Assembly: GCA_029258885.1 (NCBI GenBank)
Contig: JAPDJW010000001.1
Location: forward strand, 215,466 to 279,465
Reading direction: 5' to 3'
From: Thermoproteota archaeon
GTDB taxonomy: Archaea > Thermoproteota > Thermoprotei > Thermofilales > B9-G17
DNA: 64,000 nt
The first letter of the stretch is position 1. Each line of letters begins with the position of its first letter. Below, piece after piece: positions 50,046 to 61,855 of the stretch. The notes under the pieces were generated by a model. It searched no databases. It saw nothing but the letters and a program-made list of their open reading frames with translations, and had not been told where the DNA came from. A program made the translations under genes and the position numbers.

Positions 50046-51911
50046 TTGATTAATATGAAATCTGATCTAAGGATCATCGTTTTCACGGCACTGCTACTTA
50101 CATTATTTTCGCCAGCTCTCTCACTCCCTCAAAATCACGAGATAGAGATCTATATAGCGGATAGTGTAGCTGAATACTTAATCCTAACAACGCTAATAGA
50201 TCCTAGTAATGAGTTTGTAGTTCTGAACGGAAGCGGTGTCCATAACCTTATCAGCCAGCTTTCACTATACCTAGATGCATCCCTAGTGCTGGTAAGAGAA
50301 ATAGCGGATTATGAAGACGTATTCAACAAGTCAATAGAGATAGCTCAATACTTTAACTCTAAGCTAGATAGCATAGTAATGGTTAATGTAGAGAATGAAT
50401 CGCTGTCCGTTGTAGCATCACTAATAGCTTCAGCGCTTAACCATCCGCTAATAATGTATGAAAACCGCATAGAACTTGAGAAGCTGAAAAACCTAGGAGT
50501 AGAAAACGTATTTACCATAGGCGTAGGTGAAGATGTGGTCAATAAGCTAAAGGAATACTTTAACGTACGATCAATCCACGATATTAGTGAGGCATTAGCT
50601 TTTTACAATAGTATGTTAAGTAACAGTAAAACGCTGACAATAGCTCTGAAAAACGACGAGCTAGCTTTCATATCTGCCCTCTATGCTAAGGCAAAGAAGT
50701 CACGGTTCATAATTGTAGATAAAATACGGAAGGAGAATGAAGAATTAGTTAATTCGTTAGCAGGAATCGAGAAAGTAATCCTAGTATCATCCTTCAAAAA
50801 CCTTAAAACCGAGAGAGCATACTCAAAACTATTAAATATATTAATGAAAGGAGGGGTCGACGAGAAATATATAGAGCCTGCAGTTGCACTTATTTCAGGA
50901 ATATCGAAAAGCCATGCATCAATATTTGCCGTAAGAACCCTAAATTCAGGCAGAATACTGAGGAAGCTCAATAGGGGACAAAACCTGATATTTATGGACG
51001 ACAGCTATTCATTAACCCAAAAAATAATCAGAATAGGACGGAGGGCGGGGCTAGTCCCTAAGACCCTATACAGTGTAGGCAAGAGAGGCAACATAACAAC
51101 AGGAAACATAATTAATCTATTAAACAACGGAAACATGTTAACATACATAAACCTACATGGAAACCCTCTCGGATACGGGCTTACAACATACGGACCCTAC
51201 GTCCTCCATGCAGGTCACGTATCAGTAATAGCTCCAACAATAATAGTAACATTATCATGTCTAACATGCGATTTCGATGCAGAATACCTATATAGCGCAA
51301 AGGAAAGCATAGCGCTAAAATTCGTTTCAGCTGGAGCACTAGCATACGTAGGAGCCTCAAGGACAGAATTCACAAATGAAATAGAGATAAGTACAGCCTA
51401 TCCTGAGCTAATAGTATACCTACAAACCCACGGAGTAACGTTGGGAGAGGCGGTAAGGATAATAAATAACATACATATAAAGGAAAAGAAGGGACCATAC
51501 ATGTACCTAATAGGGGACCCAGACATAGTACTAGATAACATAAATTTTGAGTATAGGGTAGAGACGGTAAGCGGAAACGAGCTTTACAGAATAGAAATAA
51601 CTAACTTGACAGAAGTAGTCTACGTAAAATTCATAATCGATAGAAATAGGGATGATATTAAAAAATTTGAGGAAGATACTCCAAATATATTCAAAAGAAT
51701 ATACGTTGAGAAAACGAGCGAAGGTAAGTACATAGTGAATGTCTTTATGACAAAGATTTTCTCCAGCGACGTAGGCGACTTTAAGCCTGGAGAAAGTATT
51801 AAGCTGAAAATAATTTACAAGCCGTCTCTACAAATGATAGTATTAACTATAGCGCTAGTAGCGTTCTCCCTCGTTGCAGTAATGCTGCTTCTAAAGAGGC
51901 ATTCAAAATAA
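50046..51911 (+). CDS. secreted, C-terminally anchored protein with peptidase C25 (gingipain/caspase-fold) domain
   Basis: Signal peptide; LHG (His codon 51156) and SCLT (Cys codon 51258); AYVGASR, TLGEA, LIGDP; C-terminal TM. Confidence 0.72.
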   Translation: MINMKSDLRIIVFTALLLTLFSPALSLPQNHEIEIYIADSVAEYLILTTLIDPSNEFVVLNGSGVHNLISQLSLYLDASLVLVREIADYEDVFNKSIEIAQYFNSKLDSIVMVNVENESLSVVASLIASALNHPLIMYENRIELEKLKNLGVENVFTIGVGEDVVNKLKEYFNVRSIHDISEALAFYNSMLSNSKTLTIALKNDELAFISALYAKAKKSRFIIVDKIRKENEELVNSLAGIEKVILVSSFKNLKTERAYSKLLNILMKGGVDEKYIEPAVALISGISKSHASIFAVRTLNSGRILRKLNRGQNLIFMDDSYSLTQKIIRIGRRAGLVPKTLYSVGKRGNITTGNIINLLNNGNMLTYINLHGNPLGYGLTTYGPYVLHAGHVSVIAPTIIVTLSCLTCDFDAEYLYSAKESIALKFVSAGALAYVGASRTEFTNEIEISTAYPELIVYLQTHGVTLGEAVRIINNIHIKEKKGPYMYLIGDPDIVLDNINFEYRVETVSGNELYRIEITNLTEVVYVKFIIDRNRDDIKKFEEDTPNIFKRIYVEKTSEGKYIVNVFMTKIFSSDVGDFKPGESIKLKIIYKPSLQMIVLTIALVAFSLVAVMLLLKRHSK

Positions 51912-52138
51912 CTTATGCATGTAGTTAGACAAATTTTATGTATAAATTATTGGTAGAAGTAAAGAAGATTCTAAGGATGCGTGCATGTACTGTTTAGGTA
52001 AAGGGCATAAAGGAGACTTTTTAATTTACATTTTACGTTTGTAAAGCATGCTAATTTTTCTCATATATAAATTTTACCATAAAGGTTAAATTCTCCACGA
52101 GGCTATATATACCAAACTAGATACCTAGGTGTTTACGT

Positions 52139-54118
52139 ATGAGTGAGGAGAAAACAGAGGTTAAACCTGAGGTAGTAGCAAAACCAATTACAATCAAATC
52201 AATAATACTTGGAATAATAGGAGCTATAGCTGGCGTAACAGCAGCATCAATCCTAGGTCCAACAAGCGGATTCATACCAACAGCTGAAGTAGCAGTCATG
52301 ATGACGGTTATACTCGCACTATTGCAGCTATTCACTCCAATAAAGTTCACACTTGCCGAATACGTCTTTATCTACGCCATGACCTACGGTGGATCAGCAG
52401 GCTTCGACTGGGCGACAAGATGGCCAGCAGGCCTATTCTTCCACGCAACAACCCCAGCCTGGCTACAAAAGTATATGTCGTACGTTCCGGGCTTCTATTA
52501 TCTACCTAAGGAGGCATATGACCTGGCACTTCAGGGAGGAGTAGCACCACCTTGGGGCATGTTAATACCAGCATTCATAACAATGACTGTTCTAGGAGTA
52601 TTTCTAAACACTCTAACAACGTTCGCCGTACTACCATTCAAGAAGCAGATAGTTGAAGTAGAGAGATTACCATATCCAGCTACCTCAGCTGCTTTCTCTG
52701 CAGTAAACACCGTTATACTCCCGAAGGAGGAGCAGGCTGCTCCTGTGCTAGGCTCAAGAAGGAACTGGCTGCTCTTAGGACTACTAATAGGTTTCATAAC
52801 TGTAATATTCACAGAAGGATATCTAATTAGCACACTATGGCCGGGAGCACCTGTTATTCCTGAATGGATAGGAGATAGTGAAGAGGCGCCAGGAATGTTC
52901 TTCGACTACCTACCGGGCTTCATCATTGGAATACACATGAACTCACTATTTCCATGGGGCTGGTTTGGCTACTTCGCACCATTAGAAGCGCTTCTCTCAA
53001 TAATGATATTCACCTTCATAGGAATGTTCATCTTAGTATGGGAGGTAACATCGGGTAAAATACCATATGAGCCAGGAGATGCGTACGGCGATATAGGATA
53101 TATGGACTATAGATATGGAATAAACTTGTACATGATGGGCAATGTCATGCTAGCCGCCGCCGTAATAGCCCACTTCATAGTAGGATACAAGTACATACTT
53201 GAAACTATAAAGAGCAAGGAGAAGGAAGAGCCCGGCTTCATATCTCCGCAAATGATGTGGATACTATCCCTACTTTCAGTAATAATATTGACCGCCTTCG
53301 GAGTAGTCCTCGGAGCACCACCACATGTAGGCTTCTTCATAGTACTCTTCATGGTATACCTAAACACAATGTGGAGCATAAGAGGATTAGGAGAAGTTAA
53401 CCTAGCAGTAAGAGGCTACGGCTTAACAAGAGCATTCTCGGCAGGAATCAGCGAGCTATTTGGAGTAGCAACACCAGGCACAGGCGAAGTAACTCCGCCA
53501 GTTGTAGGAATGTTCCTACTACCCTACCATATAATCGATGGAAACATGGGCTCATTCGCATTAGTAGAAACCTCAAGGTTCGCATTTCTATCCAGAGTAA
53601 AAGCCACAAAGGCAATAATAATAGGAATAATAGTCGGAGCGGCAATATCTATATTGGTAGGCTGCTTCATACAGGGAAGCCTAATATATGGCCTAGGGCT
53701 TGCACACGAGGTATACGGGCAGGCCGGAGCATATTACGGATTAGCAGTACATAGAGTAAGATATTATGTAGAATACGCCTATGTGGATAGAATAACAGAA
53801 GATAGAATTCCATGGGCAATAGGCTTCTTCATACTAGCAATGGCCTTAGTATTCCTAAGAGCAAAGTTTGCAGTAATAATGCCTCTAACAGCAATAAGCG
53901 CAGGACTAGCATTCTACCTAGTAGACTGGGACGTAACAGGATGGGCATACACATTCCTACCATTCCTAATAATCAAATACCTAGTACTTAAGATAGGTGG
54001 ACCAAAGCTAGACGAGCAAGTAGCAAGACCGTTCTTCGCAGGAGCGGCAGCAGGAGGATTATTCGGAGCAGTAGTAAGCGGAATAGCAATTACGATGAAG
54101 GCTCTAGGAATGATATAA
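52139..54118 (+). CDS. OPT/YSL-superfamily-like transporter (A)
   Basis: 659 aa, many TM segments, VERLPYP motif. Confidence 0.72.
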   Translation: MSEEKTEVKPEVVAKPITIKSIILGIIGAIAGVTAASILGPTSGFIPTAEVAVMMTVILALLQLFTPIKFTLAEYVFIYAMTYGGSAGFDWATRWPAGLFFHATTPAWLQKYMSYVPGFYYLPKEAYDLALQGGVAPPWGMLIPAFITMTVLGVFLNTLTTFAVLPFKKQIVEVERLPYPATSAAFSAVNTVILPKEEQAAPVLGSRRNWLLLGLLIGFITVIFTEGYLISTLWPGAPVIPEWIGDSEEAPGMFFDYLPGFIIGIHMNSLFPWGWFGYFAPLEALLSIMIFTFIGMFILVWEVTSGKIPYEPGDAYGDIGYMDYRYGINLYMMGNVMLAAAVIAHFIVGYKYILETIKSKEKEEPGFISPQMMWILSLLSVIILTAFGVVLGAPPHVGFFIVLFMVYLNTMWSIRGLGEVNLAVRGYGLTRAFSAGISELFGVATPGTGEVTPPVVGMFLLPYHIIDGNMGSFALVETSRFAFLSRVKATKAIIIGIIVGAAISILVGCFIQGSLIYGLGLAHEVYGQAGAYYGLAVHRVRYYVEYAYVDRITEDRIPWAIGFFILAMALVFLRAKFAVIMPLTAISAGLAFYLVDWDVTGWAYTFLPFLIIKYLVLKIGGPKLDEQVARPFFAGAAAGGLFGAVVSGIAITMKALGMI

Positions 54119-54293
54119 AGTTAAAGAACTTTTTCTATCTAATTCAATAATTATTATTTTTATTCATAATCCCTTTTTGTTCATAAGGCTTTACTTATTT
54201 GTCATACAACTATGGTAATTGGCTATTTTCAATATTAAACCTTATAAATAGTAAATGTATTTTTAATATCCAATTCGAGAATGGAGTGAAAGC

Positions 54294-56237
54294 ATGTCGT
54301 CCATGACCCTTGCAACCGAGGAGGTTTATAAGGAGGGATTAACGCTAAAGGCTCTTATGGCAATGATATTCTCCTCTGTAATTATGATGCCAGCTCTCCT
54401 CTGGGTCTATCTAGCTACGGGAGTAGGTATAGGACCTATAGCGGCAGCATACGCTACGATGCTTATCTTCGGAGAATTAGGAAAACTGTTAATGTCGCCG
54501 CTAAACGAACATGAGCTTGCAACGATAAGATGGGGTGCTTCAATGGCTGCTTCCTATACTGGAGGCTTCTTATTCTCAATATATATGAGGAAGTCGCCGA
54601 TAACACATCAATATGGTATAGCCGATAAAATACCTGTATGGGTAGTTCCCCCCGAGACAAGTGAAGCATTAATTAATAGAATAATATGGCACCCTGACTG
54701 GCTACTACCCATAGGAATCGGTTACCTTACATTCTTTATATCACTAGTAGGCACAATAGGTATTTCATACATAACTAGGGAGCTATTTATAGAGGTTGAA
54801 AAACTCCCATTCCCTACAGGAGCCTTAGCTGCTGAAATAGCTAAAGCATTATCAAAGGAGGCAGGCGGGGAGAGGTATAAGATATTCGCCATAGTAACTA
54901 CACTAATGGCCATGTTTGAAGCCGCTAGGTCGCTTGCCCCAGCCTTAGGAATGGTTCTCTTCGGCAGACCAATTATTCTAATACCTCCTTTGCATTGGGA
55001 CTTTACACAGCAAATAGAGCTCATAATTCCCGGCGCAACAATAGGCTTCACCACAAACTTCATGATTATGAGCCTCGGCTTCATAATACCAGATAAGGTT
55101 ATAATATGGTCGATAATAGGAATGATATTCGCCTATATAGTAATGCCGCCGATATTCGTAGCCCTAAGGTATGGTCCGTACGCCGATTGGAGGCCGGGTA
55201 AGCCAGGAGTAATGTTAATACCAGGAACTATAGAGGGATCATGGTATCAGCCACTGCTGAACATATGGTTAAGCATAGTGATTGGCATGGCGGTTGCTGG
55301 AGCTATAATACCTTTCATAACATCATTTAAACAGTTTAAGGAGTCCCTAAAATCCTTCCTAAAACTATCATCCTCTGAGGCAAAAACATACGGAGTAATA
55401 CCTGGAAAAACTGCCTTCATAATGTTTCTAGCATCCTCAATAACTCTATCGATACTAGCCTACATGCTCACTCCAAGAGGCATAGCATTTCTTATAGGAG
55501 TATTCGCAGTAAATGTAGGTATAAGCTTCCTAAACAATATCATAGCTGGTAGGGGCATAGGACTAGCGGCTATGGCTCCAATAATACCGTATGCAAACGA
55601 AGTTGTACTATGGTTAACTACAAGCCCACAAGATATTGAGGTGTGGTTTAACCCATTCTTCGCCCAGCTAGGGGGAGCTGACCTCTGTATAGGATATAAG
55701 GCGGCTGAATTAACGAGGACTAAACCCATGAGCATAACTAAGGCTCATATAATAGGGCTACTTATGACCAACCTGGTTGGTTTAGTAATAGCTGCAATGT
55801 TCTGGAATGTCTACGATATTCCATCCAGGTTCCTTCCAGCGCCAACTTATCCCGCCGATGCGCTAATGAGATGCCTGTTTATAACCAGACAGTTCATGTT
55901 CCTTAAACCCGAGCTGATAGTTATGTCATTCATAATAGGTACGCTAATAATCGTTGCTCCAATGATACCAGTAATTGGACCAATACTAGAGCCCGTGACA
56001 GGCATTAGCGTAGTATTCGGCTTAATAAACGGATTTAACGATATGCCAAGCAACATAACGGTGCTATTTATGGGCTGGATAATTAAGAAGCTCATAGAGA
56101 GAAAGATGGGAAGAGAATGGGCCAGCAGAAACATGATAACAATAGCAGCAGGAATATGGACTGGCGGCAGCCTAGTAATAAGCCTATCGACAGCCCTAAG
56201 ATTCGCTAGAGAGGCCGTAGCACCAGAGGTCTTCTAA
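54294..56237 (+). CDS. OPT/YSL-superfamily-like transporter (B)
   Basis: 647 aa, many TM segments, VEKLPFPTG motif, divergent paralog of the upstream gene. Confidence 0.75.
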   Translation: MSSMTLATEEVYKEGLTLKALMAMIFSSVIMMPALLWVYLATGVGIGPIAAAYATMLIFGELGKLLMSPLNEHELATIRWGASMAASYTGGFLFSIYMRKSPITHQYGIADKIPVWVVPPETSEALINRIIWHPDWLLPIGIGYLTFFISLVGTIGISYITRELFIEVEKLPFPTGALAAEIAKALSKEAGGERYKIFAIVTTLMAMFEAARSLAPALGMVLFGRPIILIPPLHWDFTQQIELIIPGATIGFTTNFMIMSLGFIIPDKVIIWSIIGMIFAYIVMPPIFVALRYGPYADWRPGKPGVMLIPGTIEGSWYQPLLNIWLSIVIGMAVAGAIIPFITSFKQFKESLKSFLKLSSSEAKTYGVIPGKTAFIMFLASSITLSILAYMLTPRGIAFLIGVFAVNVGISFLNNIIAGRGIGLAAMAPIIPYANEVVLWLTTSPQDIEVWFNPFFAQLGGADLCIGYKAAELTRTKPMSITKAHIIGLLMTNLVGLVIAAMFWNVYDIPSRFLPAPTYPADALMRCLFITRQFMFLKPELIVMSFIIGTLIIVAPMIPVIGPILEPVTGISVVFGLINGFNDMPSNITVLFMGWIIKKLIERKMGREWASRNMITIAAGIWTGGSLVISLSTALRFAREAVAPEVF

Positions 56238-56303
56238 AGCTAAATATTTAAGAGATTATGTTATATGTATTTATATCTCGAACTCCCAGTAGAGGTGTAT
56301 GAT

Positions 56304-59300
56304 ATGGTAAAATTTAAGAGGAGTATCATCGGTATTACACTAGTTATAGTTCTACTTTTAATGTCCCTTGCTATACAGAATGGTATCAATGTGAAGGCTT
56401 CTCCGGAGGAGATAGAGGTATTAAACCTCAATAAGGATAACATACTTAAACACGTAGAATATCTTTCCTCACTAGGCACTAGGGTGAGCGGATACAACCA
56501 GTGTAATCTTGCAGCTCAATACATATTGAATAAGCTTAAGGAGTATGGTCTAAACGCGTGGCTTGAAAACTTTACCGTAACTGTTCCAGTAAGCTATGGA
56601 GCCTACCTGAAGATGGAGGGGAGAACTATAAATGCTTATCCTCTCGCTCCTAATCTCGTTGAAACATGCTATGTAAATGGCTTAAGCGGGCAGCTTGAAT
56701 ACATTGAGGTGAAGAATAGGGATCTAAGCGATTTCAATGGACATGAGGTTAAAGATAGAATAATTCTAATGGACTATGATTCAGGCGATGCATGGAGGTG
56801 GGCTGTATATCTCGGTGCAAAAGCTGTAGTATTCGTATACGATCCGGAAAAGGATGTTGAATCACCCTATAGAGATGATTTCTTTAAGAGGATGTGGGTT
56901 CCAGTAGACTTTCCCCGAATACTCGTGTATAAGGAGGATATAGCAGATCTATTGTCTAAGATTAGAGAGGGAGGTGTTGAGGGAGAAATAGGAGTAAACA
57001 TGGTTTATGAGAACAGGATATCCTACAATGTTATCGGTGAAATTGAGGGCTCAGACCCTAACTTTAAGGATCAGATGCTGATCTTGGCAACATATTATGA
57101 TAGCTGGTCCATAGTTCCTGATCTCGCGCCGGGTGCTGACGAGGCATTAGGTCCAGCGATCCTGTTAGAGGTAGCTAATGAAGTAGCCAAGAAGGGGGCT
57201 ATAAGAACAGTTAGATTCATATTCTTCTCAGGCTACCATCAGGCGCTAGCTGGAGTAAGAAACTACGTTTACTATCATAAGAAAACAGACTTGGATAAGA
57301 CGGTATTTGTAATAGAAATCCAAGCTTCAACCGCAACCGAGGAAATAGGGTTCTTTGATAGAGGAAACTACTTTGGGCATCTTATAGGATCGGCTGAGGC
57401 GCCGAGAAACTTCATGGAGAATGCTAAGAGAGGGATATTTTATAGGGTTGCATACGACTACTTCGGAGTTAATGCAAGCTATGTAGTTGAAAGCTATAAT
57501 CCATCCCATGCTTCTCCAGAGCTACCCAGGTACTTCTGTATAGAGCACTTCACTTTAGCAAGTATACCTGGATTAGCCATAGCCCCCATATCTTTATCCG
57601 AGTACAGGAAGAGCCCATACGACACGTACGACAGGGTGTATAGGAACAGGGATAAAATATATAAGATAGCTGACATCTATGCCACCATCTCCCTCTATTA
57701 CGCGAAATACTGTACCGAGCTAAGACTATGGGGCTCCGCCCTTAAGCTAAATAGAATAACCATACTTGAGGGCAGAGTTCTCCTACATAATAAGACAACT
57801 GGTAGATATAGCCCAGTTCCAAACGCCTTAATAACCTTCATCTACGATCCGAGGGCTAGAGGAATAGCGTTCCACTACCTAATTATAAAAGCCGATGAAA
57901 ACGGCCACTATAGGTTCGTATATCCTGCTGATAGCGATAGGGGGGCATACTACGTAACAGCATTCTCCGACTACCCCACAGAGGGCCCCGTCGACTACGG
58001 GCCTGATATGGGCGTATATGCTAGAGGATGGCGCGTTCAGTCGGTAGGCGAAAGAAGCTATGCTGAAACAGTAGTATTTCCAGCGGGATCTCTAGTAGTA
58101 TTCGACGTATTAAACCCTGAAACCCTAGAGCCCCTTGGCTGGTTCTTAGGTTCTATATGGATAGTGGACCATGAAACTCAGAGGTTCGCAGACTACTTTG
58201 GGCTAATGACTGAAATGATAGGTTTCTGCTGGGGCGAGAAGTACTTTACCGGCACTATGATGTTCTTCATAAACCCGAAGATTAACGAGATGAAGGCCAT
58301 AGATATATCCCTATCCCCGCCTGGATACATATGGGCAAGCTGCATCCTAACTAATAGATCTCGAGGATACACTATAGGGAAAGGACAGCAGTATATAGAA
58401 ACGTTCTCAATAATTAGAATCTTTGAAAACATAAGGCTACTTAACGAGGAAAGGTATAGGTTGTCCAGAAAAACAAGGCTCTACATAGAATCGGTGGAGG
58501 AATCATTTAAGATAATCGACGAAAAGTGGCCTAAAGTTATTGAAGCACTCAAGAATAAGGACTACACTAAGGCTAGAGCTCTTGCATTATACGCCTACAG
58601 CGCTGAGAGAAGAGCATACGTAGACCTAAGGTACAACCTTCTCGATGCATCATACACATCAATATTCTTCCTCCTAATGGCGCTTCCATTCGCCTATCTC
58701 ATGGAGAGGCTTCTCTTCGAATTCGAGGATCTTAAGAAGAGAGCCGTAGCAATGTTCCTAATCTTCATCTTCTCCGTGCTGTATATGTCGTATGCACATC
58801 CAGGATTCTGCTTAGTAGCCAACGTATTTCTAACAGCCCTCTCGTTCCTAATGATAGTATTGACAACTATTCCACTAATACTCGTGTTTAACAGCGCTGG
58901 AGGAGCGCTTAAGGAGCTCAGAACTAAGATCATAGGAAAACACTTCGAGGAGATGGATAAACTAAGTGCATTCGTCCTCTCAATGTCGCTCGGTCTCAGA
59001 AACCTAAGAAGAAGAAAGCTTAGAACGACGCTTTTAATAATCTCGATACTTATAGTCACGATGGCGTTCGTATCTATAATAAGCGTGGTTTCAGCAAGAT
59101 ATATTGCGCCTGTTGAGCAACTAGAGCTTGACCATGCACACGTAGGTATAATGATTAGGAGGTCATTAATTGAGAGAGCTCTATCGCCTCAGGTACTTCA
59201 AGTAATATATCACATGTATGGGGACGAGCTAGAGTACATACTTCCGGTAGTCTTTGCGTATCCAAGGGGCTTGGAGAGGCAAACAGGCATATACTTGGGT

Positions 59301-60704
59301 CCAGGTTTAAGACCTGGGGAAAGGGTATATGCAAGAGCTATAGTTGGCTTATCTACAGGAGAATGGGAGGTATTAAGGCTTAAGGACTACATAGGAACAA
59401 TGTTTTCCCCCGATACTAGGCCTTTCGTCAGTGACACGGAGCTAGTATGTATTGTTCCAGCGGATCTACTAAGGGAGCTCGGCAAGGAGATAGGGGATAC
59501 GCTTGACATAAGAGGATATTCCCTGAGAATAGTTGGAAACCTATCGGAGCCATCCCTCTATTTCAACTATGTAACCGATAATAAAGGCGAACCCCTGCTT
59601 CCTCTCGAAATGGAGGCTCAGCAGAGAGAAGTTGAGGTCAGGTACGTAGAGCCCGGAATGATAATCATTGTTCCAAGCAAGGTAGCTGAGATGCTTGGAG
59701 GAGAAGTATTCGCCGTTAGAATAGTGCCTAAGAATAAAGACAGGGATACTTTGTATCGTATAGCGAGCGAAATAGCATATTTCTTCGAGTACGACGTAAC
59801 GTACACGTATTTTGACTCAGAGAGAGGTAAATATATTGCAGTAAGGCTCGCTAAGGTAACGGCACAGCAGGTGCTAGGGCAGGAGGTCATACTGCCAGCA
59901 GCCATACTTATAATGATAATATTGAACTCAGTCATGGGCGCCGTCCACGAGAGGAGAACTGAGATAGGAATATTCAGCTCTGTAGGATTATCACCACTAC
60001 ACGTCGCCGGAATGTTCCTAATGGAGTTCATTATAGTATCCGTGGTCGGAGCATACCTAGGCTACATGATCGGAGTACTAACGCCCCAGTTCATAGGAGG
60101 ATTAAAGATAAAAGCAGGATCTATATGGCTTGTAATAGCCGTCCTCGTCTCAATAGGCGTAACCCTACTCTCAACTCTCTACCCAGTAAGGTTCGCATCA
60201 AAGCTAGTTACGCCATCCCTCGAGAGAAAATGGAGGCTAGAGAGACAGGCAATAAGAAGAGGAGATACGTTCTACGTAAAGATACCCTTCGTAATAACTA
60301 AGGAGTACGTCGATGGCGCGCTGCTCTATCTAGCAGAATACCTTGATCTCTTTAGATCAGAAAGAGAAGGTGCATTCGCTGTTGACGAAATGCACTATGA
60401 GGAATTTACCGAGGCTGGAGCACCCGTGCGAAAGTTGTCAACAAAGGTAAGAGTAAAGCCTTTCGACTGGGGTGTAACTATGAGGGCGGATATAGTAGTG
60501 AAGGAGGCTGGCCCCACCACGACATGGGAAATAATATGTAGAAGACTTACAGGAGTAGAGCATATATGGGTTAGAGGCGTAAAGAACTTCGCGGACACAA
60601 TAAGAAAGCAGCTGCTTATGTGGAGAGGCCTTACACCTGAGGATAGAGAAGACTACGTTAGGAGGGCGAGGAAAGAGCTGGAAAGATTAAAGGGGAAAAG
60701 CTAG
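56304..60704 (+). CDS. giant fusion: M28/PA peptidase-like ectodomain + MacB/FtsX-type permease + cytosolic C-terminal domain
   Basis: Signal peptide; LSSLGTRVSGY, PGADE; RNLRRRKLRT.L; ERRTEIGIFSSVGLSP FtsX motif; ATG 56304 with GAGGTG RBS. Confidence 0.85.
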   Translation: MVKFKRSIIGITLVIVLLLMSLAIQNGINVKASPEEIEVLNLNKDNILKHVEYLSSLGTRVSGYNQCNLAAQYILNKLKEYGLNAWLENFTVTVPVSYGAYLKMEGRTINAYPLAPNLVETCYVNGLSGQLEYIEVKNRDLSDFNGHEVKDRIILMDYDSGDAWRWAVYLGAKAVVFVYDPEKDVESPYRDDFFKRMWVPVDFPRILVYKEDIADLLSKIREGGVEGEIGVNMVYENRISYNVIGEIEGSDPNFKDQMLILATYYDSWSIVPDLAPGADEALGPAILLEVANEVAKKGAIRTVRFIFFSGYHQALAGVRNYVYYHKKTDLDKTVFVIEIQASTATEEIGFFDRGNYFGHLIGSAEAPRNFMENAKRGIFYRVAYDYFGVNASYVVESYNPSHASPELPRYFCIEHFTLASIPGLAIAPISLSEYRKSPYDTYDRVYRNRDKIYKIADIYATISLYYAKYCTELRLWGSALKLNRITILEGRVLLHNKTTGRYSPVPNALITFIYDPRARGIAFHYLIIKADENGHYRFVYPADSDRGAYYVTAFSDYPTEGPVDYGPDMGVYARGWRVQSVGERSYAETVVFPAGSLVVFDVLNPETLEPLGWFLGSIWIVDHETQRFADYFGLMTEMIGFCWGEKYFTGTMMFFINPKINEMKAIDISLSPPGYIWASCILTNRSRGYTIGKGQQYIETFSIIRIFENIRLLNEERYRLSRKTRLYIESVEESFKIIDEKWPKVIEALKNKDYTKARALALYAYSAERRAYVDLRYNLLDASYTSIFFLLMALPFAYLMERLLFEFEDLKKRAVAMFLIFIFSVLYMSYAHPGFCLVANVFLTALSFLMIVLTTIPLILVFNSAGGALKELRTKIIGKHFEEMDKLSAFVLSMSLGLRNLRRRKLRTTLLIISILIVTMAFVSIISVVSARYIAPVEQLELDHAHVGIMIRRSLIERALSPQVLQVIYHMYGDELEYILPVVFAYPRGLERQTGIYLGPGLRPGERVYARAIVGLSTGEWEVLRLKDYIGTMFSPDTRPFVSDTELVCIVPADLLRELGKEIGDTLDIRGYSLRIVGNLSEPSLYFNYVTDNKGEPLLPLEMEAQQREVEVRYVEPGMIIIVPSKVAEMLGGEVFAVRIVPKNKDRDTLYRIASEIAYFFEYDVTYTYFDSERGKYIAVRLAKVTAQQVLGQEVILPAAILIMIILNSVMGAVHERRTEIGIFSSVGLSPLHVAGMFLMEFIIVSVVGAYLGYMIGVLTPQFIGGLKIKAGSIWLVIAVLVSIGVTLLSTLYPVRFASKLVTPSLERKWRLERQAIRRGDTFYVKIPFVITKEYVDGALLYLAEYLDLFRSEREGAFAVDEMHYEEFTEAGAPVRKLSTKVRVKPFDWGVTMRADIVVKEAGPTTTWEIICRRLTGVEHIWVRGVKNFADTIRKQLLMWRGLTPEDREDYVRRARKELERLKGKS

Positions 60705-61855
60705 ACAATAGGCTTGACTCCGGCCTCCTGCCATTTCTCTCTAGCTAGCTTTCCCTCATACTTAAATACTCTAACCATCTCTTTGGCTTCCTCTCTCTTT
60801 TCCTGATGTTTTTCCAGAAAGTTACTAATTTTCTCAGCTAGATATAGCTTACATTCACCGCAGAGAATTTCTCCATTAATGCATTTCAAATATCTCTCCC
60901 TCAAATTGTTATCGTCTTCCTCAAAGAATATCTCTAGCCATTTAAACACAGTACAAATTTCAGGATTTCCTCCTCTCTCCCTCTGAAGCTTAGCCGTAGG
61001 CTGACCACCAGTAAAAGCATACTTAATAAGCTTTCCTTCAATCGACTCCGGTGGATCGGTTAGGAAAACGGCCGTTTCACGTTCGCTAGCACTCATTTTA
61101 CCCTCAGGACCAGTTAATGCTGGCATAAACTTGCTGTGGATAGCTGCGGCTTTATAGTAGCCGAGCTTCTCGGCAATATCCCTCTGAATCCTCCAGTATG
61201 GATCCTGATCTATACCGCACGGTATGAGGCATCTCCTCCTCTCGAGCATTGTCGGTGCAGCCTGCATGGCAGGGAAAAATATCATGCCAATGTTGGCCTG
61301 CGTATCAAACCCGAACACCGCTCTAGCCGTTGAGAAGGTTACCTTCTTAGCTATCTGAACAGCTATCTCGTAGATTTTCGGATACTCCATGTTCTCGAAT
61401 ATAAAAGTCCTATCGGGATCGAAGCCTACTGCAATTATATCCAGGATATTATCGTAGGAGTATTTCTTAACGTCACTGTAGCTTAAGTTACGTTTAAAGA
61501 GAAACTTCTCATCGTCGGTTATCTGAATATACAGGTTAACCTTAAACCTGTCCTGAAGCCACTTCGTAAAGTAGAAGGGAACTATGTGGCCTATGTGCAT
61601 CGGACCAGATGGACCCCTGCCAGTATACAGGAAGAAGCCCCTGCTCTCTCTATAGTCCTTTAAAACTAAATCCAGATCCCTGTGGGAGAAGAAGTACCTA
61701 CGCCTAAGGAACAGCGGTAGATCTCCAGTAAGCGACCTTATTTCAGCCATAAGTTCGTCAGTAATTTCCTGAGTACCAAACTCCTCTATAAGTTTTCTAT
61801 AATCAACCCTACCCCTAACTTCCCACGGCGTAACAACAAACTCATTGGACGCCAT
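60701..61855 (-). CDS. trpS: tryptophanyl-tRNA synthetase
   Basis: YTGRGPSGPMHIGH, QITDDEKF, GIDQDPY, KMSAS. Confidence 0.97.
   Translation of the reverse strand: MASNEFVVTPWEVRGRVDYRKLIEEFGTQEITDELMAEIRSLTGDLPLFLRRRYFFSHRDLDLVLKDYRESRGFFLYTGRGPSGPMHIGHIVPFYFTKWLQDRFKVNLYIQITDDEKFLFKRNLSYSDVKKYSYDNILDIIAVGFDPDRTFIFENMEYPKIYEIAVQIAKKVTFSTARAVFGFDTQANIGMIFFPAMQAAPTMLERRRCLIPCGIDQDPYWRIQRDIAEKLGYYKAAAIHSKFMPALTGPEGKMSASERETAVFLTDPPESIEGKLIKYAFTGGQPTAKLQRERGGNPEICTVFKWLEIFFEEDDNNLRERYLKCINGEILCGECKLYLAEKISNFLEKHQEKREEAKEMVRVFKYEGKLAREKWQEAGVKPIV

Follow-up and report, generated by a model that had tools for sequence, protein, structure and literature searches.

The window analysed here, a stretch of 64,000 nucleotides (C3:215466-279465) from the 2.1-Mb, 99.9% complete genome of an uncultured hot-vent archaeon, carries four large open reading frames (ORFs) on the + strand that together span positions 50046-60704. 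They encode a C25-like cysteine peptidase, two OPT-fold permeases (OPT-A and OPT-B) and a giant membrane protein, in which an extracellular M28-like head is joined to a MacB/FtsX membrane module. An earlier examination of this DNA from its letters alone (the sequence-only reading) had proposed that these genes specify an ATPase-less system for the capture and uptake of peptides. ORF calls, Pfam matches and profile matches agree with the four co-oriented genes and the domains claimed there. The quoted motifs VERLPYP / VEKLPFP and PFDWGV...RKQLLMWR were found in the translations, and the window contains no ATP-binding cassette (ABC) ATPase, since none of the 47 PF00005 matches of the genome falls inside it. 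From comparative genomics, the giant, A and B appear to behave as one obligate unit, present in eight copies in this genome. We give about even chances to the interpretation that the window locus is one copy, specialised for peptides, of an undescribed modular machine of the cell envelope with ATPase drive provided in trans, the other seven copies serving for glycans.

The assignment of genes 2 and 3 to the OPT family withstood closer analysis. OPT-B matches PF03169 over its full length (47 bits, cut-off 25.8; profile positions 22-616 of 623), and its family profile matches a solved OPT member, barley YS1 (PDB 7wsr, E 3e-5). OPT-A had no Pfam match of its own, and its BLASTP similarity to OPT-B was marginal (E 0.02). 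Comparison of the two family profiles, built from orthologs and paralogs, aligned A with B over the full length (hhalign probability 99.9, E 8e-35). Three of the seven OPT-A paralogs were scanned and all matched PF20581 (55-125 bits); PF20580 matches were also present in paralogs, and one paralog reached PF03169 at 26.6 bits. These profile data indicate that OPT-A is an OPT-fold protein. The motif E-x-L-P-[FY]-P occurs in both A and B proteins. In a tree of the 16 permeases of the genome, eight A and eight B proteins were separated with 100/100 support, one of each per locus, and the window's copy was the most diverged in both clades. B paralogs are only 22-27% identical, and A is recognisable as OPT only by profile comparison.

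The anatomy of the giant was examined through Pfam, alignments and two AlphaFold2 models of parts of the protein (alignments of 43 and 67 sequences; mean predicted local distance difference test (pLDDT) values of 89.4 and 89.6). Pfam identified Peptidase_M28 (46 bits, residues 255-372) and FtsX (40.1 bits vs a cut-off of 25.5, residues 1212-1313), with MacB_PCD (residues 921-1097) at 23 bits, below its cut-off of 27. The profile of the head matched 2ek8 among PDB entries (E 5.5e-28), with nicastrin and nicalin also matched in this sequence-profile search, and Foldseek with the head model retrieved 2ek8 (E 1.5e-27) followed by BSAP, PaAP, TfR1 and GCPII. The head has the M28 fold and, by motif position, lacks the zinc-ligand set and catalytic Glu of the family: YYD replaces HxD, GADE is kept, and SGYHQ (SGHWQ in paralogs) replaces the catalytic Glu-Glu, these residues being assigned by motif position in alignments and not by structural superposition. 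The loss of the Glu-Glu pair agrees with the earlier description of the head as a dead peptidase. Since the remodelled site has no general base, a role in binding rather than in hydrolysis is more likely.

The membrane part of the giant has the architecture of type VII ABC proteins, a four-transmembrane (TM) FtsX unit with a core domain between TM1 and TM2, as seen in the Pfam FtsX match and in the model with pLDDT 89.6. Foldseek matches were 5xu1, MacB, LolCDE and HrtB (E 4e-10 and weaker); VIA-align gave HrtB (Z 13.2) and the MacB periplasmic domain 3ftj (Z 12.3, root-mean-square deviation (rmsd) 4.7 over 184 residues), and the folds of YtrF, FtsX, YbbP, BceB and LolC/E were matched as well. 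Giants keep the elbow/coupling helix and the ER..REI loop, and residues H845, P846, H893 and R917 are invariant in their alignment. The C-terminal domain of about 130 residues resembles KA1, TBP-like and helix-grip folds (5iri, Z 9.4, rmsd 2.3 over 98 residues), a likeness of the model (Z 7-9) that is too weak for a claim of homology, and a search of the ESM Atlas with this domain gave no usable match. No P-loop or other nucleotide-binding motif was found in its alignment or its AlphaFold2 model. The idea that this 130-residue KA1/TBP-like alpha/beta fold without a P-loop is a cryptic ATPase was rejected.

Table 1. Features of the locus (window positions) and ATPase genes found elsewhere in the genome (C2 positions)
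Feature	Position	Strand	Basis or remark
C25-like (gingipain/clan CD) cysteine peptidase gene	50046..51911	+	PF01364 match
A-type OPT-fold permease gene (DUF6785/DUF6784 lineage)	52139..54118	+	Profile-profile alignment, clade membership
B-type OPT-fold permease gene	54294..56237	+	PF03169 match
Giant membrane protein gene, core of the module	56265..60704	+	M28 and FtsX Pfam matches, two AlphaFold2 models
Giant: extracellular PA + M28-like head (~residues 45-482)	56397..57710	+	Profile and Foldseek matches
Giant: beta-sandwich domains and three-helix stalk linking head to membrane (~residues 483-795)	57711..58649	+	Secondary structure of AlphaFold2 model
Giant: three extra TM helices and cytoplasmic elbow/coupling helix (G.HF.E...LRNLRRRKLRT)	58650..59015	+	AlphaFold2 model, helices 2-136
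Giant: MacB/FtsX module (TM1, extracellular MacB-type core domain, TM2-TM4, ER..REI..S.GLSP loop)	59016..60209	+	Pfam FtsX, fold matches
Giant: cytoplasmic C-terminal alpha/beta domain (VTPSLERKW...RKQLLxWR), family signature	60210..60701	+	63-sequence alignment
Orphan LolD/MacB-type ATPase gene	C2:342683-343423		Flanked by THUMP, NMD3 and CGI-121 genes
Paralog ATPase gene	C2:376287-377009		Adjoins 219-aa FtsX-only protein

The search for further copies in the genome, by tblastn and ORF clustering, revealed eight modules, each made of one giant (~1470-1520 amino acids), one A and one B. A clade of three modules (M2/M4/M5) recurs congruently in the A, B and giant trees, indicating that whole modules were duplicated. 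With a single giant protein as query no related loci were retrieved; with the alignment of its orthologs, loci were found in Thermofilaceae/Thermoproteales, Bathyarchaeia, Brockarchaeota, "Thaumarchaeota", Desulfurococcaceae and metagenome-assembled genomes of Brocadiaceae. In 76 loci of other taxa the giant is nearly always directly followed by B, with A within a few kb, and the trio was present in nearly every locus examined in Thermofilaceae-type, Bathyarchaeia and Brockarchaeota genomes. Furthermore, proteins of ~2100 amino acids in Gemmatimonadota and Latescibacterota show the order M28-PCD-FtsX-(~170 amino acids)-DUF6785-DUF6784, a natural fusion of giant and A. The obligate unit is deduced from the eight co-duplicated copies, this near-universal synteny across classes and the fusion, and the three proteins probably form one complex. 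The co-occurrence of two OPT genes with an M28-FtsX gene in other genomes, on which the sequence-only reading depended, was thus found, and a chance co-location of the four genes was rejected in view of synteny and co-duplication.

Among genomes of the same order, 38 of 41 match the giant, many with 10-20 matches; a genus of this order with complete 1.6-1.8-Mb genomes gave weak domain-level matches only. In a sample of the phylum, the C-terminal domain of the giant was present in 70 of 401 genomes (29 of 161 genera), with up to ~9 module copies per genome, and it lay inside a frame of ~1500 amino acids in every listed match unbroken by a contig end or in-frame stop. Database members also come from Armatimonadota and Planctomycetota, under names such as "M28 family peptidase", "FtsX-like permease", "ABC-type ... 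permease subunit" or "hypothetical". On Planctomycetota-labelled Brocadiaceae/Brocadiia contigs of 35-144 kb (L080, L081, L083, L100, L104), a giant and a B gene were observed with no A-type gene within 10 kb; these loci could represent a two-component form or carry a more diverged A. A second class of FtsX protein (~950-1200 amino acids, with a CarboxypepD_reg-like N-terminus and no M28 head) lies beside some modules (L022:4913-7876, L027:6812-9685, L014:2901-6479, L016:340-3942) and also adjoins orthologs of the window module in other genomes; there is none in the window. Our literature search found no paper on FtsX, OPT and M28 together in archaea or on DUF6785/DUF6784 (PF20581/PF20580).

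The genes beside the other seven modules, and beside many elsewhere, encode GH57 proteins, a PSMA-like amylase, DUF6259/GHL6 proteins, PQQ-type beta-propellers with Ig domains, CBM4_9 proteins, GFO/IDH/MocA oxidoreductases, xylose-isomerase-like TIM barrels and DegT aminotransferases. As the neighbours differ from module to module, the modules look substrate-specific, and this gene context suggests peptides as substrates of the window copy and glycans as those of the others.

The C25-like gene is the distinguishing partner of the window copy. Its product matches Peptidase_C25 (PF01364) at 25.6 bits (cut-off 23) over profile positions 219-372 only, corresponding to the C-terminal catalytic part, and its first ~300 residues had no match to a Pfam family. 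The His-Gly...Cys pair of family C25 lies within the profile match: His371-Gly372 and Cys405 are invariant in six orthologs and 34 residues apart, as in clan CD peptidases; the protein is a predicted peptidase. A signal anchor lies at its N-terminus, and a TM helix with a basic tail at its C-terminus. The gene is single-copy in the genome, and in five further genomes, no two of the same family, it adjoins the orthologous module. Its order and strand vary among them, and the persistence of the linkage in spite of these changes indicates selection on it. In addition, three orthologous loci of relatives have, after the giant, a gene for an M1-family peptidase with a signal peptide. Its closest homolog in this genome (37% identity) is encoded at C2:160220-165669, beside a shorter FtsX-type protein and away from the window module. 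The conservation of the C25-like gene beside this particular copy fits peptide specialisation. The window module looks, from these comparisons, like a protein/peptide-specialised copy, given the C25-like gene retained in five genomes, its invariant His/Cys pair and the M1 peptidase in three loci.

It has to be noted that the absence of an ATPase from the window does not extend to the whole genome. No gene for a nucleotide-binding subunit was found in the window or beside any of the eight copies. The genome was then searched for an orphan LolD/MacB-type ATPase, a check that the sequence-only reading had proposed, and one was found. NCBIfam identified four ATPases of this type, two of which adjoin ordinary FtsX permeases. 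Orthologs of the orphan ATPase, 78-90% identical, occur in 22 relatives within the order, every one of them among the ~24 that bear giants; between giant orthologs, identity is only 34-48%. The giant-less relatives that were searched had no close ortholog of it, only generic paralogs of 42-51% identity. In the phylum sample, the ATPase clade was present in 66 of the 70 genomes with a giant and not found in four, three of these four being 70-89% complete and the fourth, G409, 94%; among the 331 genomes in which the giant was not found, it was present in 23 and not found in 308. In those 66 genomes, LolD/MacB-type ATPases occurring as a pair, together with the small FtsX protein, accompany the giants, an association that does not support the proposal of an ATPase-less system. 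A trans-encoded motor for the giant is, on these sequence data, the likelier case, and the apparent lack of an ATPase probably comes from viewing a single window.

Evidence in cis comes from Staphylothermus. In the family concerned, the giant occurs in two of 16 genomes, S. marinus and a second one that we take to be S. hellenicus, and the same two alone have the ATPases. In both species, GH57 genes flank the two ATPase genes and the small FtsX gene, and the single module is part of the same locus. In S. marinus, a GH57 gene and the glycogen synthase gene are followed by three small genes, a gene for a 612-aa beta-sandwich protein, then the giant, A and B; after these come a further GH57 gene, a 183-aa gene, two consecutive ATPase genes, the small FtsX gene, a 151-aa gene and a large gene whose S. 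hellenicus counterpart is a GH57 gene. The module is placed in a glycogen/alpha-glucan locus with GH1, a GH57 glucanotransferase, the glycogen synthase and two further GH57 genes. A six-frame search of the two Staphylothermus genomes with PF03169 gave no significant match, which reflects a limit of sensitivity, since the translated B protein passes Pfam (PF03169, 41.8 bits); the A protein matches PF20581 at 99.2 bits. In a second lineage (G124), the paralog ATPase gene lies 2.1 kb upstream of a giant. In the genome of the window, the ABC ATPase encoded at C4:109347-110273, 0.9 kb from module M2, falls outside the LolD-type group found with the orphan ATPase as query. Linkage of a cognate ATPase to the FtsX fusion had been named beforehand as an observation that would refute the sequence-only reading; it was found in part, with the cis arrangement in S. 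marinus and S. hellenicus, and binding of these ATPases to the giant is a prediction from sequence.

In the published genome of S. marinus, Smar_1393 is a glycogen synthase, and Smar_1400 is reported as the first crenarchaeal OPT-family peptide transporter (PMC2678158). By gene count from Smar_1393, Smar_1400 corresponds to the B protein of the organism's only module, and giant, A and B together would be Smar_1398-1400. Whereas it was published as a lone secondary peptide carrier (PMC2678158), here it stands between the giant/A pair and the GH57 genes, with two LolD-type ATPases and a small FtsX nearby, and its annotation as a peptide transporter may need revisiting.

Traces of the locus were also found in environmental data. 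Four short contigs of a marine-sediment metatranscriptome, 97.5-99.7% identical, map on OPT-B (one) and on the giant, and provide weak evidence for transcription of these two genes; the parts of the locus without an RNA contig carry no information on expression. DNA contigs of two other metagenome studies span the locus with ~1-1.4% substitutions. The sole indels in these variants over 10.9 kb are in the OPT-A/OPT-B spacer (54129-54149), and the coding regions show substitutions only, a pattern that intact, selected genes would show.

A heteromeric capture and uptake complex fed by the C25 protease, as first proposed, is partly supported by comparative genomics. In the mechanism that we favour, the surface-anchored C25-like peptidase, with a secreted M1 aminopeptidase in relatives, would cut extracellular protein, and the head of the giant would capture the resulting oligopeptides. 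The MacB-type module would then do mechanical work outside the membrane, loading or gating the OPT-fold permeases, which would constitute the path across it. Energy would come from the LolD/MacB-type ATPases encoded elsewhere (Table 1), common to all eight modules, and the OPT-fold permeases might contribute proton coupling. With glycans as substrates, the other seven copies would act in the same way; uptake is suggested by the GH57, DUF6259, CBM4_9, GFO/IDH/MocA and xylose-isomerase-like genes that adjoin them. The system would then be an undescribed variant of type VII ABC systems, locked to two OPT-fold permeases and specialised at each locus. Only tentatively do we advance the further proposition that nutrient importers of a new class are at hand, with a MacB-type mechanotransmission protein that loads or gates two OPT-fold channels from outside the cell and with one trans ATPase set common to substrate-specific modules. 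Such a system would be an archaeal counterpart of polysaccharide/peptide utilisation loci, combining parts of a primary (ABC type VII) and a secondary (OPT) transporter.

Each part of the system has known relatives, from which it departs in defined ways. Like type VII ABC systems (MacB, LolCDE, FtsEX, HrtBA, YbbAP, YtrEF, BceAB; PF02687), which it matches in fold (Z 11-13; Foldseek E 4e-10 and weaker), the giant has a four-TM FtsX unit whose TM1 and TM2 are separated by a MacB-type core domain. It also has the N-terminal elbow/coupling helix and a conserved loop between TM2 and TM3, and giants co-occur with a LolD-type ATPase clade. Unlike them, it mostly has no ATPase gene in cis, carries ~900 extra N-terminal residues (PA/M28 head, beta-sandwiches, stalk and three TM helices) and a family-specific cytoplasmic C-terminal domain, and is paired obligately with two OPT-fold permeases in a gene context that points to import. 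The permeases resemble the OPT/Yellow-Stripe-like family (PF03169, TC 2.A.67; barley YS1, 7wsr) in the full-length match of B and the shared E-x-L-P-[FY]-P motif, whereas they are very diverged, always paired, locked or fused to a MacB-type protein, and in some copies placed in sugar loci rather than peptide or metal-chelate loci. The head shares its PA + M28 fold with the aminopeptidases 2ek8, BSAP/YwaD and PaAP and with GCPII, and shares fold and loss of the catalytic Glu with the pseudo-peptidases transferrin receptor 1, nicastrin and nicalin; it differs from these receptors and enzymes in being fused to a membrane transporter module and in a metal site that is remodelled rather than simply lost (GADE kept, His replacing a ligand Glu). 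Functional analogues only are the Sus-like polysaccharide utilisation loci of Bacteroidota and the archaeal Opp/Dpp-class ABC importers, which also exist as many paralogous copies, each with its own extracellular hydrolase and catabolic genes. The module proteins are unrelated to theirs, with no SusC/D and no type I ABC importer dependent on a substrate-binding protein.

Several observations weigh against a trans-driven importer. An ATPase in cis is missing from this genome and from most lineages, proximity being found in only two of ~29 genera, and in genomes with many copies the chance of such proximity is not negligible. One genome that is 94% complete and carries seven giants (G409) has no close ATPase ortholog. 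The ATPase clade is present without giants in 23 sampled genomes, which indicates that the ATPase trio can work alone, and its co-occurrence with giants may come in part from shared ancestry, related genomes being non-independent observations. The RNA contigs could be DNA carry-over. Finally, to our knowledge the known MacB-type systems export, extract or activate, and none imports.

We consider it unlikely that the complex is truly ATPase-independent, the OPT pair importing peptides on the proton gradient and the giant serving passively as receptor or scaffold, with no function of its MacB module and C-terminal domain other than coupling to the permeases. OPT carriers are secondary transporters, an ATPase is absent from the window and from 71 of the 76 related loci, genome G409 fits this explanation, and the family-specific cytoplasmic domain found after TM4 in all members might cover the ATPase contact or take its place. 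However, the distribution of giants closely tracks that of a highly conserved clade of LolD-type ATPases, giants are linked to the ATPases in cis in Staphylothermus, the elbow helix and the TM2-TM3 loop motifs of ATPase-driven relatives are kept, and the C-terminal domain is a small KA1/TBP-like fold without nucleotide-binding features.

We regard it as improbable that the module is not an importer at all and, like LolCDE, FtsEX, HrtBA or MacAB, exports or assembles material or acts on the envelope, for example by placing or activating surface enzymes or by extracting membrane material. All characterised type VII ABC systems that we know of act outward or on the envelope, the giant's fold matches are to these systems, and the accessory genes beside modules encode mostly secreted or anchored proteins; the C25 family, in turn, includes the PorU sortase-like enzyme, and the C25-like protein has a weak NCBIfam match of PorU type. 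On the other hand, two OPT-fold permeases are obligate partners of the giant and known OPT members import, many modules lie within catabolic operons with cytoplasmic sugar-processing enzymes, and eight diverged copies fit substrate specificities better than a single housekeeping task in the envelope. Very improbable is a non-nutritional C25-like protein, acting as a maturation or trans-peptidase enzyme on the ectodomain of the giant or another surface protein of the module: its restriction, as a single-copy gene, to this orthologous module, the match of only its C-terminal part to C25 and the PorU-type match would suit such a role, but the M1-family extracellular peptidase that joins the same module in three relatives fits protein digestion better, and paralogous modules carry polymer-degrading enzymes in the equivalent position.

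An obligate and sometimes fused pairing of a type VII ABC protein with OPT permeases would be a new transporter architecture; as far as we know, only outward or envelope-directed action has been ascribed to type VII ABC systems, and OPT carriers have been regarded as working alone. It would constitute a major unrecognised uptake route for protein and glycan fragments in sediments and vents, used by Thermofilaceae-type archaea, Bathyarchaeia, Brockarchaeota and some bacterial phyla (Gemmatimonadota, Latescibacterota, Armatimonadota and Planctomycetota). Metabolic reconstructions now label these genes "M28 peptidase", "FtsX permease", "DUF6785" or "hypothetical". New in this work are the peptide assignment of the window copy, the phyletic distribution of the ATPases together with the Staphylothermus cis locus, and the link to a gene already published from an organism in culture. 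As cultured S. marinus has a single complete locus, the question is directly testable.

Regarding gene boundaries, the ORF of the giant encodes 1479 amino acids, or 1466 if translation starts at ATG 56304 (MVKFKRS..., signal-anchor-like), 13 codons inside the ORF, which is probably the true start. The C25-like gene likely starts at ATG 50055. The sequence-only reading had assigned each gene its own TATA-like element. AT-rich TATA-like strings, as candidate elements, do precede all four genes, and a TTTATAT lies ~27 nucleotides 5' of ATG 56304, within the nominal first 13 codons of the giant (56265-56310). Separate promoters for all four genes are not established, because the giant starts only 27-66 bp after OPT-B.

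The flanking genes are ordinary according to Pfam: an ATP-dependent DNA ligase, an ADP-forming acetyl-CoA synthetase, a PrsW protease and a class I tRNA synthetase. The gene for the PrsW-family intramembrane protease (45300-46190) lies 4 kb upstream of the locus, and no conservation of it with the module was found. The tRNA synthetase gene (- strand, 60701-61855) is convergent with the giant, and their 3' ends overlap by 4 bp, so that there is no space for a terminator between the two genes.

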